This document shows, piece after piece, positions 26,501 through 35,500 of a DNA stretch of 40,615 nucleotides. Where the stretch lies: contig JBBDRK010000056.1 in assembly GCA_040905465.1 (NCBI GenBank), positions 53,253-93,867 on the forward strand, in the 5' to 3' direction. The position numbers are program-made. Position 1 is the stretch's first letter. Each line of letters opens with the position of its first letter. Source of the stretch: Trueperaceae bacterium (GTDB lineage: Bacteria > Deinococcota > Deinococci > Deinococcales > Trueperaceae).

Positions 26501-29500
26501 CTCGTCGCTCACCTGTGCGTAGGCGAATACCGCCCGCCCCTCCACGCCGGGGGTCACCAGCAGGTCGGCGGTGCCGGCCGCGGCGGCCAGGGTGCTGGCA
26601 ACGTTGGCCTCGACGTTGTCACCCACCGACAAGGTCGCCAGAACGGCAGCGATTCCGATCGCCACCCCCAGAACGGTCGCCGCGGTACGCCAGGCGTGAC
26701 GAAGTAGATTGCGCAGCGCCAGCCGCACCAGCATCGGCATCGGTTCCAGTGTAGCCGAGCGGCCCTCGGTGCTAGTCGTTTTCCCTCACGGCAGCCGGGT
26801 TGCGGCCCGTCGCCAGTGCCAGGCCCCCTATGAGAGGACCGACCAGGAAGTAGATGTAGTGCTGGTATAGCCGCCACAGGATTACGGCCGCGGCGAGCGA
26901 TCGCCCGCCTACATGACCCTTGAGGGCGTAGGTTATGGCCGCCTCCTGGTAGCCGCTTGCGCCGGGTGTGGGGACCACGAAGGCAAACGCGTGCAGGACC
27001 ACCTGTGCCGCGTATACCACCAGGTGTTCGGCGCTCACCAGCAACCCCACCAGGACCAGGTTCAGCACCGCGAAGTAGGGGAGGCGGGCGCCGCTCGAGA
27101 GCAGGTGGAAGCGCACGTGCCAGTGCCACGGCCGCCGGGAGTACCGCTCCCCGGCCAGTGCCAGGTCGCGCAGGAACGGGTCGATCCTGCCGTGGAAGCG
27201 TTGCAGGAGCGGAAGAGCGGAAAGTCGTCGAAGCAGGCTGATCGCCATCGGAAGGCGGAACACCAACAGATAGCTGACCACCAGCGCCAGTGCCGACAGC
27301 AAGGCGACCAGCAGACCGAACTGCTCCAGGGGCACGGTTATGCGGGCCAGGCGCAGCGCCAGGTAGCCCGTCGGCGCCGCCCAACCGAAGAAGGCCAGGT
27401 CGCCGACCAGGCACATCACGGCAACCGACACGGCGCGGTCGGTGGGGAGCCCGAAGCGGTTGAGGAGGAATACGATCCCGATCGAGTTGCCGCCGCCGGC
27501 CGGCGTCGCCACCGCGCTGAACGTCCCGAGCACGTGGGTCTGGATGCCTTGCCAGAGACTCGTCGGATGACTCGTACCGCGCGTGAGAAAGACGATCCGC
27601 CAACCGGACAGCAGCCACCACAGCAGCATCGGCACCGCGATGCCGGCCAGCGACAGGGCGTCGAGGCGACGAATCACGCCGAGTGCGTCGGCGGCCAGGC
27701 CGTCCGGTGCCACCAGGTAGATGCTGGTGACCCCCAGCACGAGTGATACTACGAACGCAACGAGCAGGCGGGTCACTTGGCTCCGGTCAACGGTTCGAGG
27801 CCGGGGCCGCAGGCGTCTTCCGCCGGCTGCCCTGTTCGAGCGTAGTGACCGAGGTAGCGTCCCAGCCGGGCCGCCATTCCCGGGAAGTCCAGGCGGACGG
27901 CGGCGAGGCGCACTCGCTCCAGCCGATCGGGGTCGCTCCGGTAGTTGCACACCTCGCGCCGCAGTTCGGCCGGCGTCAGTACCAGCCGTCCCAGTCCGTG
28001 TCGCTCGAGCAGCCCGATCATCTTGTTCTCCGCGGTGCCGAATCGCATCGGAGCAAGCAGCGGCCGGCCCACCGCGAGGGTCTCGTACACGGTTGCCGGG
28101 CCGCTTTTTCCGATCACGACATCACAGGCCGCCACGTAATCGGCCAACTCCTCCACGAAGCCGAGTACACGCAGATTGGGGAGGCGCTCCTCGAATCCGG
28201 CCAGGCGCCGGCGTAACGCCTCGTTGCGGCCCGTCACGACCACAACCTGAGTCGTCGGGTCGTCGCTCAGTGCTTCCAGCACCGCCTCCGGTGTCCCCCC
28301 GACCCCCTCTCCTCCCAAGGTCACCAGGCAGGTAAAGGCCTCGTCCAGTGCCAGGCGCCGCCTTGCCTCGGTCTTGCCGGGTGCGCACAGGAACTGCTGC
28401 CGAACCGGATAGCCGACCACGTCGATACGTGATCCCGGAACGCCGAAGCGCATCAGTCTGCGCCTGGAGACCGGCGACGCCACCACGAACCGCTCGGCCA
28501 GCGGTTCCGCCCACAGCGCGTTGGCGTTCAGAGTCGAGGTTTCGAAGGTGAGGACCGGGGCTTCCAGGCCGAACTGCCGCTGCGCGAGTGTCATGGCCAC
28601 CGTAAGCCAGCCGTGGTTTACGACCACCAGCGCCGGGCGGGTCTCGTTGAGCTCCTGAGCCGCCCGCTCCGCGAAGTCGTGCAGCAGGCGCCGGTGGAAC
28701 GCCGCCGTCGCGGCAGGCAGGGCGTCGATCAGCCGCTGGCCCCAGACTATGGTCCAGGGGTGGCGCAACGCGCGCCGCCATCCCTCTTTATGACGCCGGT
28801 CGAGCTCATCGAAGCCGAAGTCGACCATCGGCTCCGTCACCCTAGTGTCGAAGGTTACCGGGTAGGCCTGCTCGAGCGCCTGACTCATCGCCTCGGCCGT
28901 GCTGACGTGCGACCCTCCGGCCGCTATCGTGGCAAAGAGTACCGAGCCCTGACGGGCAGTGGTCGGCAACGGCGAGAAGTCGATTTCCATGGGCGATTCG
29001 ACCGCCTCAGTCTAGCCTGATTCAGTGCAGGCCCTCGGTGATGAAACTTCGTTCGGGTCTGCCGCCTCGCGCGTAACTGGCGATGTAGCGTGCCAGTCGC
29101 TCGCTCATGCCCGGAAGGTCGAGTCCAGCGGCGGCGGTGGCCACCTGCTCGAGTCGGTCCGGGTCGCGGCGGTACCGGTCGACCTCCTGCCTTATGGCCT
29201 CCGGCGAGCGCACCAGCGCCCCGAGACGCCGCCGGACCAGGAAGCGTACGACCTCCAGTTCGTTCAGCCCGGCATATCCGGTAGCGATGAACGGTCGGCC
29301 GACCGCCAGCGTCTCGAAGACCGATGCCGGCCCGGCCTTTCCGACCACCACATCGGCGGCGGCCAGGAAAGTAGCCACCCGATCGGTGAATGCCTCGAGG
29401 CGCAGACTCGCCCAACGCTCGGCCAACGGGGCGAGACTGCGCCGGAGAACGGGGTTTCGCCCGGTCAGCACGACCAGCTGAAGGCCATCCTCGAGGAGGC

Positions 29501-32500: not shown

Positions 32501-35500
32501 GCCAGGCGTAGAGGTCCATGGCCTTGCCGTAGCCGGCCGATTCGACGAACGCAGGATATTCGGACGGATTCTGCGGCATCATCAGGTACGGCACCGTGTC
32601 GAAGGCGTCGATCTGAAAACCGGAGCCGTCGTTCATCGAAGGATTGGCGGGACCCCTGACGACATCCCGACCCAGTTGCCTGGCGCGCCCCTCCACCGTC
32701 GCCAGCAGTTCGTTGGCGACAGTCTGGTCCTCGGCTTCGAAGAATCCGAAGAACAGGAGGTTGTCGCCGTGGGTTCGGTTGTGGTTGTCGTCATCTATCG
32801 CCGCGATCCTGCCAACGAGTCGGCCCTCCCGGTAGGCGAGATAAAGGTCGATACGTGCGTGATGGAAAAACGGGTTGCGCTTGGGATCGAACTTCTCCCA
32901 CTCCGAAATCAGGAGGGGCGGGACCCACAGCGGGTCGGCCCGGTACTTCCGGTATGGATACTCGATGAAGCGGCGCAGATCACGCCGGCCGGTTACGTTC
33001 TCGATCCGAATCATGCCGTCGGTCGTAACCGCAGGGATGGGAAACTGAGCATGGGGGCTCTCCTCGCACTCTCCGGCAGGGCGGCGCAGTTGTCACCCCG
33101 CCAGGAGGCCTAGCCGATTATGTCGAAGCGCCTTCCCACCACCTCGAAGGCGGCGAGCAGCGCATCGAGCTGCTCTATCGTGTGATTAGCGTTTACGCTC
33201 GTGCGAATTATCGCCTGACCGCTCGGTACCCCCGGCGGGAGCGCGGGCGTGGTGAAGATCCCTTCCTCCCACAGCCCTTTCCAGAAGAGCATGGTCAGGT
33301 CGTCGGGCCCAATGAGGACCGGCACGATGGGGGTCTCGGAACCGAGTGTGTCGAATCCCAGCGAGCGCAGTCCGCCGTGAAGACGTTCGACGTTGCGCCA
33401 CAACTTTATGCGGTGTTCGGGCTCATTCTCGATGATCTCGAGAGCCTTCAGAGCGGCAGCCATCTGCATCGCCGGCAGTGCAGCGGTAAAGATGAACGGG
33501 CGCGCCTTGTGCTTGACGTAGTTGACCACCTGACGAGGGCCCGCCAGGAAGCCGCCCACCGAGCCGAACGACTTAGAGAACGTTCCGACTATCAGGTCGA
33601 TCTGATCGTCGAGACCAAAATACTCCGCGCTGCCGCGACCGCTCGCGCCGAGGACTCCGGTGGCGTGGGCGTCGTCGACGATTACCCGGGCGCCGAAACG
33701 GCGCGCGATCTTCACGATTTCCGGCAGGCGAGCAACGTGCCCGCTCATCGAAAAGACCCCGTCGGTGACGATCAGCCGGCCCCCGGGCCGATCGCTGTCT
33801 TTGGCCAAAAGCCGTTCGAGGTGCGCCAGATCGTTGTGCTCGTACTTGCGCAGGGTTCCGAACGCAAGCCGGGCACCGTCGTAGAGGCACGCATGGTTCT
33901 CACGGTCGAAATAGAGGATGTCGTGTCGCCCGGTGAGCGCGCTGATGACCGAAAGGCAGCCCAGGTAACCGGCGCTGAACGTCAAAGCGGCTTCCTTGCG
34001 AAGGAATGAAGCCAGCCGTTCTTCGAGCAGTTCGTGGAGCGTAAGCGTTCCGGTAAGGAATCTCGAGCCGGTGCAACTGGTGCCGAAGTCGTCGAGCGCG
34101 TTCCTGGCCGCCTCTTTCAAGCGCTGATCCTGAGTGAGACCCAGGTAGTCGTTGGAACCGGTGATGACCATGTCCCTGCCGTTGACCGTGACGGTGCCGC
34201 CGTGCTGCCTCGCTATCGGCTTGAAATACGGGTGCATCCCCGCTGCGACCGCCTCGTCCGCCCGAGTGAAGGCGAATGCCTTGTCGAACACGTCGGTCAC
34301 CCGGCTGGACGGAGAGTCGAGCACCCCGGTGCTGCTCTCGAGACGATTCTGGTGCTTCTGAGTGGGGTTGGATTGTTCGGACAAAAGACCCTCCGTGCGG
34401 GCGTGGCACGACGCAACGCGGTTACTATAGCACGCGTCTTCCGCTTCCCCGTATGCGGAACTTCGCCGCTTCCCACGGGCATCCGGGCGTCTCGACGAAC
34501 GGTTCGGCGGTCGACGTCGTGAGGGGTCCCCGGCCGGTGCCGGCCGTCGACCGACTGTGACCGGGGGCAGGCGTTCGAGTCGGCACCGCCCGGTATAATG
34601 AAGCCGTGAGCACTCAACGTGATGGGGGTGAGGGCGCCCAGCTGACGTCGCTTGGCGCGGCCACGCGTCCCGCCGACGTACGTGACGCCCCCCTGGTACA
34701 TGCCATCTACCTGGAGACTCCGGGTTACTTCGACATCATTTCGATACCGGTTCCCACTTTGGCCGAGGTCGAGACCGAGTTACAGACGGCCGGCCGCGAC
34801 GCGCGGCGCCAGGTCGAACTCGTGTTCGCGCCGGCCGATCTGCCGCTCGCCGGCTGGCACCTCCGTGACCCGCATCAGGGGCGGCCGGTAGTCGGCTACC
34901 TGGACTACAAACTGGACTATCCGGAGGCCGGCGACGCCACCGTCAATCTTATGCTGGTACATGGTGGCCTTCAGAGCAAGGGCGTCGGTAAGTCGTGCGC
35001 AGCCGATCTGGAGGTTCGGCTGAGGCAAAGGGGTACGGTCCGGCGGGTACTGGCCAGCATTTATGGGCAGAATCCGCGCGCGGAACGGTTCTGGCGATCG
35101 CTGGGCTACAGATTCGCCATCGACGCCAAGCCGATTCTGGACTGGTACGCCAAGGAGCTCTGAGCGCTTCCGTTGCGTCGGTGGGCCCTCACCGCCCGCC
35201 CGGCGGCGTTCCGTGGCACCAATTGAGGGTGGTACGCTATCCTGCGGCAGAATGGTTGCAGACGCAGGAACCTGGCCTGCGAGCTGTTCTGAGTCATCGG
35301 AGGCAGGTAATGATCAGTGTCACGGACCTACGAAATGGTACGAAGGTCGAAGTTGACGGGGCGCTCTGGGAGTGCCTCGAGTACCAGCACCAGAAGATCG
35401 GGCGCGGCGGCGCCAAGGTGGTTGCCAAGTTTCGCAATCTCGACACCGGTTCGATCGTCGAACGCACGTTCAACTCGGGTGAGAAGTTGCAGGACATTTT

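Follow-up and report, generated by a model that had tools for sequence, protein, structure and literature searches.

In the window, a stretch of 40,615 nucleotides from a Trueperaceae genome (assembly GCA_040905465.1, contig JBBDRK010000056.1), a gene-by-gene profile search delineated a ten-gene operon on the minus strand, running from 34384 to 21146 (Table 1). Neighbouring genes overlap by 4 nt or are separated by gaps of at most 95 nt. The seven genes described in the genome-wide survey's note were all recovered on this strand with unchanged coordinates, and the operon extends past them into a MacB-type permease, an ABC ATPase and then an MMPL gene. According to translation and a start scan, two maximal open reading frames are overlong: that of the CPBP gene reaches up to 32355 but overlaps the GNAT gene, its most likely start being the one listed, and that of the flippase-like gene (26772-27950) was shortened by re-placing its start. 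Alternative start codons of the alpha-oxoamine synthase (AOS) lie at 34324 and 34300.

Table 1. Genes of the operon, in order of transcription
Gene product	Position	Strand	Remarks
Spt-like alpha-oxoamine synthase (AOS)	33110..34384	-	424 aa from first start codon; Aminotran_1_2 200 bits
Tandem-GNAT N-acyltransferase, YghO / CC_1154 (bCerS) family	31905..33014	-	369 aa; YghO homology
CPBP / Rce1-like polytopic membrane protein	31195..31848	-	Pfam Rce1-like 45.9 bits; ATG start at 31848
Extended SDR, probable CerR-type 3-keto reductase	30188..31198	-	336 aa; Epimerase 98.6 bits
GT28-type lipid glycosyltransferase a (GTa)	29022..30191	-	389 aa; Glyco_tran_28_C 31.8 bits
GT28-type lipid glycosyltransferase b (GTb), tandem paralog of GTa	27773..28990	-	405 aa; Glyco_tran_28_C 38.1 bits
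Flippase-like membrane protein, MprF / LPG_synthase_TM type	26772..27776	-	PF03706 63.2 bits; GTG start 27776
MacB/LolCE-type ABC permease	24176..26740	-	854 aa; two FtsX and two MacB_PCD domains
ABC ATPase, MacB/LolD type	23432..24172	-	246 aa; ABC_tran 106.2 bits
MMPL-family RND lipid exporter (predicted)	21146..23404	-	752 aa; last gene of the operon

The synthase, acyltransferase and reductase

Compared with solved structures, the AOS is closest to S. multivorum SPT (365.5 bits), followed by the bifunctional BioF/KBL of Thermus (292 bits); KBL and BioF score 239.6 and 203.7 bits, which reproduces the values reported by the survey (365 for SPT, 240 and 204 for the other two). The PLP-lysine motif GTFSKS is common to AOS and SPT. 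The best NCBIfam models are likewise those for Spt, both under their cut-offs (430.8 bits vs 640 and 381.9 vs 500; previously 431 and 382), a shortfall that we counted against a ceramide reading; the BioF (379.3) and BioF/Kbl (379.8) models come near the second of them. In an 83-row tree, the AOS is positioned in a 52-row clade (SH-aLRT 98) that includes 13 Bacteroidia Spt reaching or exceeding the NF047600 cut-off, apart from a separate 19-row clade of KBL, BioF and BioF/Kbl enzymes labelled by curated cut-offs. With an E. coli Spt scoring above the NF047599 cut-off, it shares 39% identity. At the sequence level, assignment of the AOS to the Spt clade rather than to KBL or BioF is supported.

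It is very improbable that the AOS serves as housekeeping KBL or BioF in this genome and is located beside lipid genes by chance. It is indeed the only AOS of this genome, and its second-best structural match is the Thermus enzyme, but the true KBL, BioF and BioF/Kbl of Deinococcota fall into the other clade of the tree, and on Trueperaceae contig L010 an Spt-like gene exists alongside a KBL that exceeds its cut-off. Moreover, the AOS gene is located at most 500 bp from a GNAT gene in 111 of the 154 GNAT loci compared across many phyla, and neither BioB nor a Tdh over its cut-off was found in the 95% complete genome, where the survey had likewise seen neither BioB nor an AOS paralog. A different substrate is the more plausible of these two departures, albeit still unlikely: the core could form an N-acylated amino-lipid from alanine, glycine, threonine or cysteate instead of a serine-derived sphingolipid, the product being a 1-deoxy-ceramide, a capnine-type sulfonolipid or another aminolipid. 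Cysteate-C-fatty acyltransferases also match the AOS well (258.5 and 250.5 bits), every Spt model is under its cut-off, and Ding et al. (PMC11334938) report unusual ceramides, 1-deoxy forms among them, from clades of Spt-like enzymes. Nevertheless, Spt structures score ~107 bits above the cysteate enzymes, curated Spt enzymes are found within the AOS clade, and the glycosyltransferases of the operon fit a free C1 hydroxyl.

Over its entire length, the GNAT is homologous to YghO of E. coli (36% identity, E 2e-78), itself a homolog of the bacterial ceramide synthase CC_1154 of Caulobacter (PMC9386255, legend to Fig. 9); this fills in the direct bCerS comparison that the survey's note had lacked. 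The neighbourhood of E. coli YghO comprises lptF/G paralogs, Spt, ACP, an epimerase and an acyl-AMP ligase, and the Spt of this cluster exceeds its curated cut-off (599.9 vs 500). In Pfam, the GNAT matches Acetyltransf_1 with 24.1 bits; no NCBIfam model matches it. Its predicted model (pLDDT 92.1) adopts a tandem-GNAT fold with 2wpw as best match (5.2e-14), bearing out the earlier prediction (pLDDT 90.5, 2wpw 2.9e-14). The linkage to the AOS within 500 bp, previously given as 62 of 80 loci, now stands at 60 of 80, and reaches 74 of 80 among named Bacteroidota loci. A GNAT of Sphingobacterium zeae shares 38% identity with that of the window and lies 72 bp after an Spt that reaches 838 bits against the crystallised S. 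multivorum enzyme, and among Bacteroidia genomes with an Spt passing the cut-off the GNAT adjoins it in 10 of 15.

The SDR is matched by the models for OleD 3-oxo reductase (140 bits) and HpnA (127 bits), and displays the motifs GxxGxxG (residues 7-13) and YxxxK. A comparison to CerR, also missing before, was carried out with the E. coli epi gene product, the counterpart of CC_1164: the single sequence is 29% identical (E 2e-15), and a profile of AOS-GNAT-linked SDRs matches epi over the whole length (hhalign probability 100, E 1.2e-44). An HpnA/OleD-type profile is common to the SDRs that accompany AOS-GNAT pairs in 8 loci of other phyla. Two observations on this enzyme were counted against the ceramide reading, the identity of only 29% to the E. 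coli reductase homolog and the absence of a detectable signal peptide in the window SDR, whereas Caulobacter CerR is reported to be periplasmic (PMC11087976). A CPBP gene separates GNAT from SDR in 12 of the 20 family loci sampled; outside Deinococcota, it occurs in only 3 of the 154 GNAT loci, all without phylum assignment.

The glycosyltransferase, flippase and exporter genes

GTa and GTb are 50% identical, and both exceed the Glyco_tran_28_C cut-off of 22 bits. They share this domain with the diglucosyl-DAG synthase UgtP/YpfP, MGDG synthase and MurG, together with a weak match to the N-terminal MGDG_synth domain (21 and 24.4 bits; cut-off 25). In contrast to the GT28 diacylglycerol enzymes, they score only 63.6 and 97 bits with the diglucosyl-DAG synthase model, well under the equivalog cut-off of 500, and their predicted acceptor is ceramide, not diacylglycerol; that their annotation derives only from diacylglycerol- and lipid II-type models was counted against the ceramide reading. 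The flippase-like protein passes PF03706 (cut-off 33.4) and TIGR00374 (54.9 vs 43.2 bits), and scores 50.5 bits with the GlcN-PG flippase model. The permease matches FtsX (109.5), MacB_PCD (94.9) and, under cut-off, lolCE (96.5 bits); the ATPase matches the ATPase part of MacB (218) and LolD (204 bits), and the MMPL gene the MmpL3 (285.7), MMPL subfamily (198.2) and HpnN (57.3 bits) models, all under cut-off. These domain families are those of the MprF-type flippase domain, LolCDE/MacB and MmpL3/HpnN, movers of amphiphilic envelope lipids or lipoproteins, although the equivalog scores of the window genes are all under cut-off. None of these named relatives is known to carry sphingolipids.

Within the 127 genomes of the window's own family, 96 contain both AOS and GNAT, 8 only GNAT (5 of which carry low-scoring paralogs), 1 only AOS and 22 neither. 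In Deinococcota, the two co-occur in this family and one sister family, and the 216 genomes searched from three other families (f2, f4, f5) yielded neither of them; the family-level pattern in the survey's note is thus reproduced with different counts. AOS and GNAT are unlinked in some cases (genus g16, family f3), with both still present in the genome. Of the 20 family loci sampled, 8 preserve the permease, and 8 the MMPL gene, with order and strand unchanged. The survey had described two GT28 genes; both are present in the window, but the arrangement is local: one GT occurs in 11 of 20 sampled loci and two in none, and only the window and L003 have two among the Trueperaceae loci examined. 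Since GT, flippase and exporters are absent from about 40% of the sampled loci, glycosylation of the ceramide is something that we infer. Their absence, which concerns 8 to 12 of the 20 loci, was counted against the ceramide reading, and these genes may constitute a separable module.

Two neighbouring modules could be envisaged, a possibility that we regard as rather doubtful: AOS, GNAT, SDR and possibly CPBP would make a plain ceramide, while GT28, flippase-like, MacB-ABC and MMPL proteins would synthesize and export some other envelope glycolipid, for instance a glycosyl-diacylglycerol. The GT models that match, diglucosyl-DAG synthase and MGDG synthase, are compatible with this, as are three family loci in which nothing follows AOS-GNAT-CPBP-SDR, one with AOS-GNAT-FLIP-MacB-ABC and neither SDR nor GT, and a Rubrobacter radiotolerans plasmid carrying an LTA-synthase-family gene, and no GT, after the core. 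However, GT and flippase genes come after AOS-GNAT-SDR, without a change of strand, in members of two phyla (Trueperaceae and Rubrobacteraceae); the window genes are connected via 4-nt overlaps or ~30-nt gaps; and GT/flippase homologs in the 154 GNAT loci are confined to Deinococcota, Rubrobacteraceae, other Actinomycetota and one locus without phylum name.

Known systems and the proposed pathway

The ceramide cluster of Caulobacter crescentus and E. coli BL21 consists of five genes, spt, acpR, epi/cerR, aasR and aca/bcerS (= yghO), accompanied by lptF2/lptG2. The window operon has three catalytic families in common with it, the SDR being homologous at the profile level, and condensation, N-acylation and 3-keto reduction should match. 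Unlike that cluster, it has no specialised ACP or acyl-ACP synthetase in profile searches and no Lpt paralogs, but an MprF-like flippase, a MacB-type ABC pair and an MMPL in the place of Lpt; its SDR lacks a signal peptide, and the operon includes an inserted CPBP gene. Of the SPT subgroups, that of Bacteroidota is nearer to the AOS than that of Rhodobacteria. The spt-GNAT(-SDR) pair of Sphingobacteriaceae and relatives (Sphingobacterium, Pedobacter, Mucilaginibacter, Dyadobacter, Chitinophagaceae) resembles the window in gene order and strand as well as in its acyltransferase and synthase; its Spt, unlike the window AOS, pass or approach the NF047600 cut-off, and GT28, flippase-like and exporter genes were not seen within 4-kb flanks. 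Spt-like AOS outside the classical Spt clade, with bCerS/CerR homologs nearby, also characterize the ‘Spt-like clade B’ clusters of Black Sea metagenomes, which Ding et al. 2024 (PMC11334938) place in many phyla; Deinococcota are not mentioned in its main text or preprint, the phylum lists standing in the supplements.

On the basis of the YghO/CC_1154 homology, the SDR profile match, the Spt clade and the co-occurrence, the core can therefore be equated with the known Spt-bCerS-CerR pathway, and we consider it likely that the operon belongs to this bacterial ceramide pathway and joins it to genes for the head group and for export. By homology, it could operate in the following manner: The Spt-like synthase would form a 3-keto long-chain base by condensation of a long branched acyl thioester with an amino acid, for which L-serine is the most likely candidate. 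The YghO/bCerS-type tandem GNAT would N-acylate this base, and the cytoplasmic extended SDR would then reduce the 3-keto group, yielding dihydroceramide. Gene linkage suggests a glycosyl head group and an export route: one or two GT28 glycosyltransferases may add hexoses to the free hydroxyl, the MprF-like protein may flip the glycolipid across the membrane, and the MacB-type ABC pair and the MMPL may move it from the inner membrane towards the outer envelope.

Literature searches, whose coverage did not extend to phylum lists in supplementary tables, revealed no earlier account for this phylum. In the description of T. radiovictrix, glycolipids and phospholipids are recorded only as uncharacterised, along with long-chain 1,2-diols (PMC3072082); apparently, nobody has looked for glycosphingolipids in Trueperaceae. 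Because the operon resembles a ceramide pathway combined with sugar-adding and export genes, these extremophiles, judged by their genes, probably make them.

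The operon and its alpha-oxoamine synthase

Ten closely packed genes occupy the minus strand from 34384 to 21146, adjacent genes lying no more than 95 nt apart or overlapping by 4 nt. The gene cluster that the genome-wide survey's note had placed at 26772..34384 is confirmed, and its coordinates correspond to the first seven of these ten genes. The flanks consist of housekeeping genes unrelated to the operon: upstream, on the opposite strand, a small GNAT, EF-P, AccB, AccC, Asp23, NusB and FolD, and downstream a LEA_2 protein, an enoyl-CoA hydratase and Ddl. A promoter and terminator scan gave no signal exceeding that of shuffled sequences.

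Coordinates of the operon genes, of the divergent upstream gene and of a plasmid-borne Rubrobacter core (positions within the window unless stated)
Feature	Position	Strand	Basis or remark
Spt-like alpha-oxoamine synthase (AOS)	33110-34384	-	Pfam/NCBIfam domain call
Tandem-GNAT acyltransferase (GNAT), 369 aa	31905-33014	-	Pfam domain call
CPBP/Rce1-like membrane protein (CPBP)	likely start 31848	-	maximal ORF overruns upstream gene
Extended SDR	30188-31198	-	Pfam/NCBIfam
GT28-type glycosyltransferase GTa	29022-30191	-	Pfam/NCBIfam
GT28-type glycosyltransferase GTb	27773-28990	-	Pfam/NCBIfam
Flippase-like protein, LPG_synthase_TM / TIGR00374 family	likely start 27776	-	maximal ORF overruns upstream gene
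MacB/LolCE-type permease	24176-26740	-	two FtsX and two MacB_PCD domains; Pfam/NCBIfam
ABC ATPase, partner of the permease	23432-24172	-	Pfam/NCBIfam
MMPL exporter	21146-23404	-	Pfam/NCBIfam
Small single-domain GNAT	34606-35163	+	Acetyltransf_1, 31.8 bits; divergent from the AOS gene
AOS-GNAT-SDR core, Rubrobacter radiotolerans RSPS-4 (locus L359)	14230-19822 of the plasmid 1 record		191-kb plasmid, beside type I-D CRISPR genes

The core of the operon very probably encodes a ceramide-type pathway. A PLP-dependent alpha-oxoamine synthase fold of the AOS is supported by Aminotran_1_2 (200 bits, Pfam), and its GTFSKS motif, the lysine of which is presumably the PLP-binding (Schiff-base) residue, aligns with the same motif in the serine palmitoyltransferases (SPT) of S. 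multivorum and S. paucimobilis. Among solved structures, Sphingobacterium multivorum SPT is the best match (365.5 bits), followed by Thermus BioF/KBL (292) and Sphingomonas SPT (271), with cysteate acyltransferases (258 and 250), KBL (240) and BioF (204) scoring lower. The protein remains below all NCBIfam Spt cut-offs (NF047600, 430.8 vs 640; NF047599, 381.9 vs 500; NF047603, 299.8 vs 670); since these equivalog models are lineage-specific (CFB, Beta and Alpha), it is filed as Spt-like rather than as a curated equivalog. As the BioF and BioF/Kbl models reach ~379 bits on the same protein, HMM scores alone are indecisive for its identity.

The phylogeny separates these enzymes. The pool comprised 164 AOS matches with at least 300 aligned residues from fetched loci, of which 83 rows were chosen to span the groups, with duplicates and rows containing internal stops removed and HemA left out; the tree was built with the quick IQ-TREE method (LG+G4, SH-aLRT support, midpoint root). 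The AOS of the window falls into a 14-row clade of Trueperaceae and Rubrobacteraceae (support 100), nested in a 52-row clade (SH-aLRT 98) together with 13 Bacteroidia Spt that reach or exceed the NF047600 cut-off. The other AOS genes found in Thermus-like, Deinococcus-like and Trueperaceae genomes form a clade of their own (19 rows, support 95); nine of its 12 rows scanned with NCBIfam exceed curated cut-offs (3 BioF/Kbl, 5 KBL, 1 BioF), one is near the BioF cut-off and two are far below every cut-off. In this tree, the AOS thus groups with known Spt, apart from KBL and BioF. The Trueperaceae contig L010 bears both types, a true KBL as well as an Spt-like gene. The survey's statement that the window's genome (95% complete) has neither an AOS paralog nor BioB is borne out, a single AOS and no BioB being found, and no threonine dehydrogenase above cut-off was detected there.

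The candidate acyltransferase and reductase

In domain searches, the GNAT yields a weak Acetyltransf_1 match in Pfam and nothing in NCBIfam. Its AlphaFold model from 32 sequences (pLDDT 92.1) adopts a tandem-GNAT fold with 2wpw (5.2e-14), MAB_4324, a glucosamine N-acetyltransferase and MshD as best matches; the modelled fold is compatible with an acyl-CoA- or acyl-ACP-dependent N-acyltransferase and does not indicate the substrate. The GNAT belongs to a large family: more than 3028 of 8000 scored candidates are homologs. Two scans of species genomes provided 154 distinct loci, in 111 of which an AOS lies within 500 bp of the GNAT (60/80 and 51/74 in the two scans); an SDR is nearby in 81. No Caulobacter, Sphingomonas or Bacteroides record was among the matches returned by GNAT profile scans of genome contigs, and no paper was found in literature searches for 'bacterial ceramide synthase' plus GNAT.

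By homology and gene order, three links tie the GNAT family to proven sphingolipid genes: a Bacteroidia genome sample, named Bacteroidota and E. coli YghO. In the first, 15 of 251 Bacteroidia genomes (unpublished genomes G204 and G126 counted in the denominator only) have an Spt above its curated cut-off, which a GNAT directly adjoins in 10. When these Bacteroidia GNATs served as seeds, 80 named Bacteroidota loci were retrieved (Pedobacter, Mucilaginibacter, Sphingobacterium, Dyadobacter, Chitinophagaceae), 74 of them with an AOS immediately upstream of the GNAT; the AOS of Sphingobacterium zeae scores 838 bits against the crystallised S. multivorum SPT, and the GNAT 72 bp downstream of it is 38% identical to that of the window. 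The third link rests on the Fig. 9 legend of PMC9386255, which lists 'aca: CC_1154, yghO ECD_02850' and 'epi: CC_1164, ECD_02852' as genes needed for dihydroceramide synthesis. A protein search of plasmid records located YghO in E. coli PN43, where its gene adjoins a fatty acyl-AMP ligase, an epimerase-family SDR, an ACP, a PLP enzyme above the NF047599 Spt cut-off (599.9 vs 500) and lptF/lptG paralogs. The direct comparison with a bacterial ceramide synthase (bCerS) that the survey had found wanting could thus be made at one remove, the PN43 gene being equated with its BL21 counterpart on the basis of name and gene order and Caulobacter CC_1154 being reached only through YghO: residues 1-369 of the window's GNAT align over their full length with YghO 7-380 at 36% identity (E 2e-78).

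Lower-scoring GNAT paralogs also occur in genomes that lack Spt, namely 13 of 18 Bacteroidia controls and the Trueperaceae genus g25, so membership of the superfamily alone is no proof of ceramide synthase activity. These YghO-type paralogs (about 190-290 bits), seen in Bacteroidia, in genus g25 and on Roseomonas plasmids, are not accompanied by any Spt-like gene, and the Roseomonas copies adjoin nucleotidyltransferase and dATP pyrophosphohydrolase genes; ceramide synthesis is probably not their role. What looks like a decaying copy is present in one Trueperaceae genome (G624:C8:2887-3981, with 10 in-frame stops: 6 TGA, 1 TAG, 3 TAA), the Spt-like AOS of which is intact on a different contig.

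Several of the records retrieved carry doubtful labels. The 354-kb PN43 record (L360, NZ_MG591698.1) is filed as a plasmid and looks chromosomal because it bears the glc operon in addition to yghO and an spt cluster that includes lptF/lptG paralogs. Three MAG contigs titled Bifidobacterium breve (L072, L074, L080) hold an AOS-GNAT pair grouping closely with Solirubrobacteraceae; mis-binning or mislabelling has probably given these contigs a false title. A MAG titled 'uncultured Alphaproteobacteria' (L043, genome G001) is placed in a class with 31 and a phylum with 79 genomes in the set used and hence lies outside Pseudomonadota in that taxonomy; no Spt above the alphaproteobacterial cut-off was found there.

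The SDR, a candidate for the ceramide reductase CerR, carries the Rossmann motif GAHGFIG at residues 7-13 and the YxxxK motif as YARSK at about residues 142-146; G7, G10, G13, S115/S116, Y142 and K146 are invariant in a 15-row alignment. Its best curated models are OleD 2-alkyl-3-oxoalkanoate reductase (140 bits) and HpnA, a pattern shared by the SDRs adjoining AOS-GNAT pairs in eight loci of other phyla, and HpnA and OleD are likewise the top NCBIfam models of the E. coli epi gene product. The SDR is 29% identical to the latter (E 2e-15), and the 15-row profile of AOS-GNAT-linked SDRs aligns with it over 298 columns (hhalign probability 100, E 1.2e-44); judged from these alignments, the SDR is a distant member of the CerR/epi family. 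CerR is described in PMC11087976 as homologous to NDUFA9; the SDR profile matches NDUFA9 / 39-kDa subunits at 102-112 bits, with sugar epimerases scoring equally or higher, and the single SDR sequence has no NDUFA9 match at E 1e-8. In contrast to Caulobacter CerR, which the same paper reports to be periplasmic, no signal peptide was found in the window's SDR.

Distribution and synteny in Deinococcota

Both marker genes were searched for in 364 Deinococcota genomes, with the GNAT profile at E <= 1e-20 and the Spt-like AOS at E <= 1e-120; in both searches, the positives of the window's own family include the unpublished genome G612.

Genomes with the two marker genes in the families of Deinococcota
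Family	GNAT	Spt-like AOS
f1 (Trueperaceae)	104/127	97/127
f2	0/125	0/125
f3	19/19	18/19
f4	0/23	0/23
f5	0/68	0/68
f6	1/1	0/1

The two genes co-occur in 96 of the 127 genomes of Trueperaceae, while 8 have the GNAT only, 1 the AOS only and 22 neither. Five of the eight GNAT-only genomes contain low-scoring paralogs, and the other three are MAGs of 70-91% completeness. Both genes are mostly absent from genus g22, in which a 100% complete genome (G587) has KBL only; other Deinococcota families keep an AOS of the BioF/Kbl type (38-45% identity). When genome contigs were scanned with the GNAT of a Truepera sp., only Trueperaceae MAG records and no named type strain were among the matches.

Synteny was assessed in 20 of the 124 GNAT-positive genomes, chosen with the GNAT on long contigs (19 of Trueperaceae, from 11 genera, and 1 of family f3). 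Same-strand neighbours of the GNAT include the AOS in 16, CPBP, the SDR and the flippase-like protein in 12 each, and MacB, the ABC ATPase and MMPL in 8 each. The four loci in which no AOS is adjacent belong to genus g16 and family f3; the checked genomes of these groups encode an Spt-like AOS (57-72% identity) elsewhere. One glycosyltransferase (GT) lies beside the GNAT in 11 of the 20 genomes and two in none; among the Trueperaceae loci examined, two GTs were found only in the window and in locus L003.

Proposed head group, export and spread of the pathway

As a whole, the operon is likely to join an Spt-bCerS-CerR core to genes for head-group attachment and export. By homology with the known bacterial pathway, the Spt-like AOS would catalyse the condensation to a 3-keto long-chain base, which would then be N-acylated by the GNAT and reduced at the 3-keto group by the SDR, in either order. 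No specialised ACP or acyl-ACP synthetase is encoded in the operon, so acyl-CoA or the housekeeping ACP probably serves as thioester donor. Going by linkage, the GT28 enzymes may glycosylate the lipid, the MprF-like flippase may flip the product, and MacB-ABC and MMPL may extract and export it; on balance, a glycosyl-ceramide is slightly favoured as the final product. GTa and GTb, 50% identical to each other, exceed the Pfam gathering score of 22 for Glyco_tran_28_C (31.8 and 38.1 bits), and their N-terminal MGDG_synth domains are slightly below cut-off (21 and 24.4 vs 25 bits). The flippase-like protein surpasses its curated cut-offs (TIGR00374, 54.9 vs 43.2; PF03706, 63.2 vs 33.4). Compared with described sphingolipid systems, the GT28 transferases, the MprF-like flippase, MacB-ABC, MMPL and the CPBP protein are additions to the core, and the candidate export route formed by the MprF-like protein, the MacB-type ABC and MMPL differs from that of Caulobacter, for which Lpt paralogs have been proposed.

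A role of the lipid as a replacement for LPS, as in Sphingomonas, was considered and dropped, because the genome has LpxA above cut-off and LpxC- and LpxD-like genes. These lie within 3.6 kb of each other, in the window's genome and outside the window (G000:C4:30774-34360): LpxA at 237.5 vs 231, an LpxC-like gene at 163.4 vs 187 and a hexapeptide-repeat LpxD-like match. LpxB was not found in this genome, and lpxC had no match in Thermus and Deinococcus control genomes; with these Lpx genes, Trueperaceae may possess part of a lipid A-type pathway.

AOS, GNAT, SDR, GT and flippase are also present in Rubrobacteraceae and related Actinomycetota, at 68-75% (AOS) and 54-64% (GNAT) identity to the window. 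Both Trueperaceae and Rubrobacteraceae tolerate radiation and desiccation, and they belong to different phyla. Rubrobacteraceae AOS form the sister clade in the midpoint-rooted 83-row tree, and GT and flippase homologs among the 154 GNAT loci were restricted to Trueperaceae, Rubrobacteraceae, other Actinomycetota and one locus lacking a phylum name. In the cultured Rubrobacter radiotolerans RSPS-4, plasmid 1 carries AOS-GNAT-SDR, and the gene that comes next is of the LTA-synthase family, in place of a GT; this arrangement suggests a phospho- rather than a glyco-head group in that strain, and a mobile core. The close kinship of the AOS genes and the plasmid-borne copy together suggest lateral transfer between extremophile lineages and interchangeable head-group modules. 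More tentatively, the two families might share a laterally transferred, self-contained glycosphingolipid island, with the MprF-like flippase, the MacB-type ABC and MMPL as an export route unrelated to the Lpt paralogs of Caulobacter, and its products might be the uncharacterised Truepera glycolipids, which would help to build an unusual envelope.

The envelope lipids of Deinococcota are known mainly as unusual glycolipids and phosphoglycolipids. For T. radiovictrix, the genome paper (PMC3072082) describes the polar lipids as glycolipids and phospholipids in a complex mixture that has not been compared, along with long-chain 1,2-diols. Searches combining Truepera, Deinococcota or Rubrobacter with sphingolipid, and Deinococc with serine palmitoyltransferase, returned only community-correlation papers. 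According to the main text of Ding et al. (PMC11334938), 40 phyla instead of 9 are now candidate sphingolipid producers; neither this text nor its preprint nor the literature searches mention Deinococcota, Truepera or Rubrobacter as producers, and the supplementary phylum lists may already include them. With Spt-like clusters predicted in about 40 phyla by that text and the core pathway known, the surprise is limited: the ceramide core is an already known kind of pathway, and what sets the operon apart from described systems is the gene set attached to it. If the reading is correct, sphingolipids would extend to Deinococcota, a second, well-separated set of clusters would be at hand for studying the function of YghO-type GNATs, and the MprF-like protein, the MacB-type ABC and MMPL would be put forward as a candidate route for sphingolipid flipping and export.
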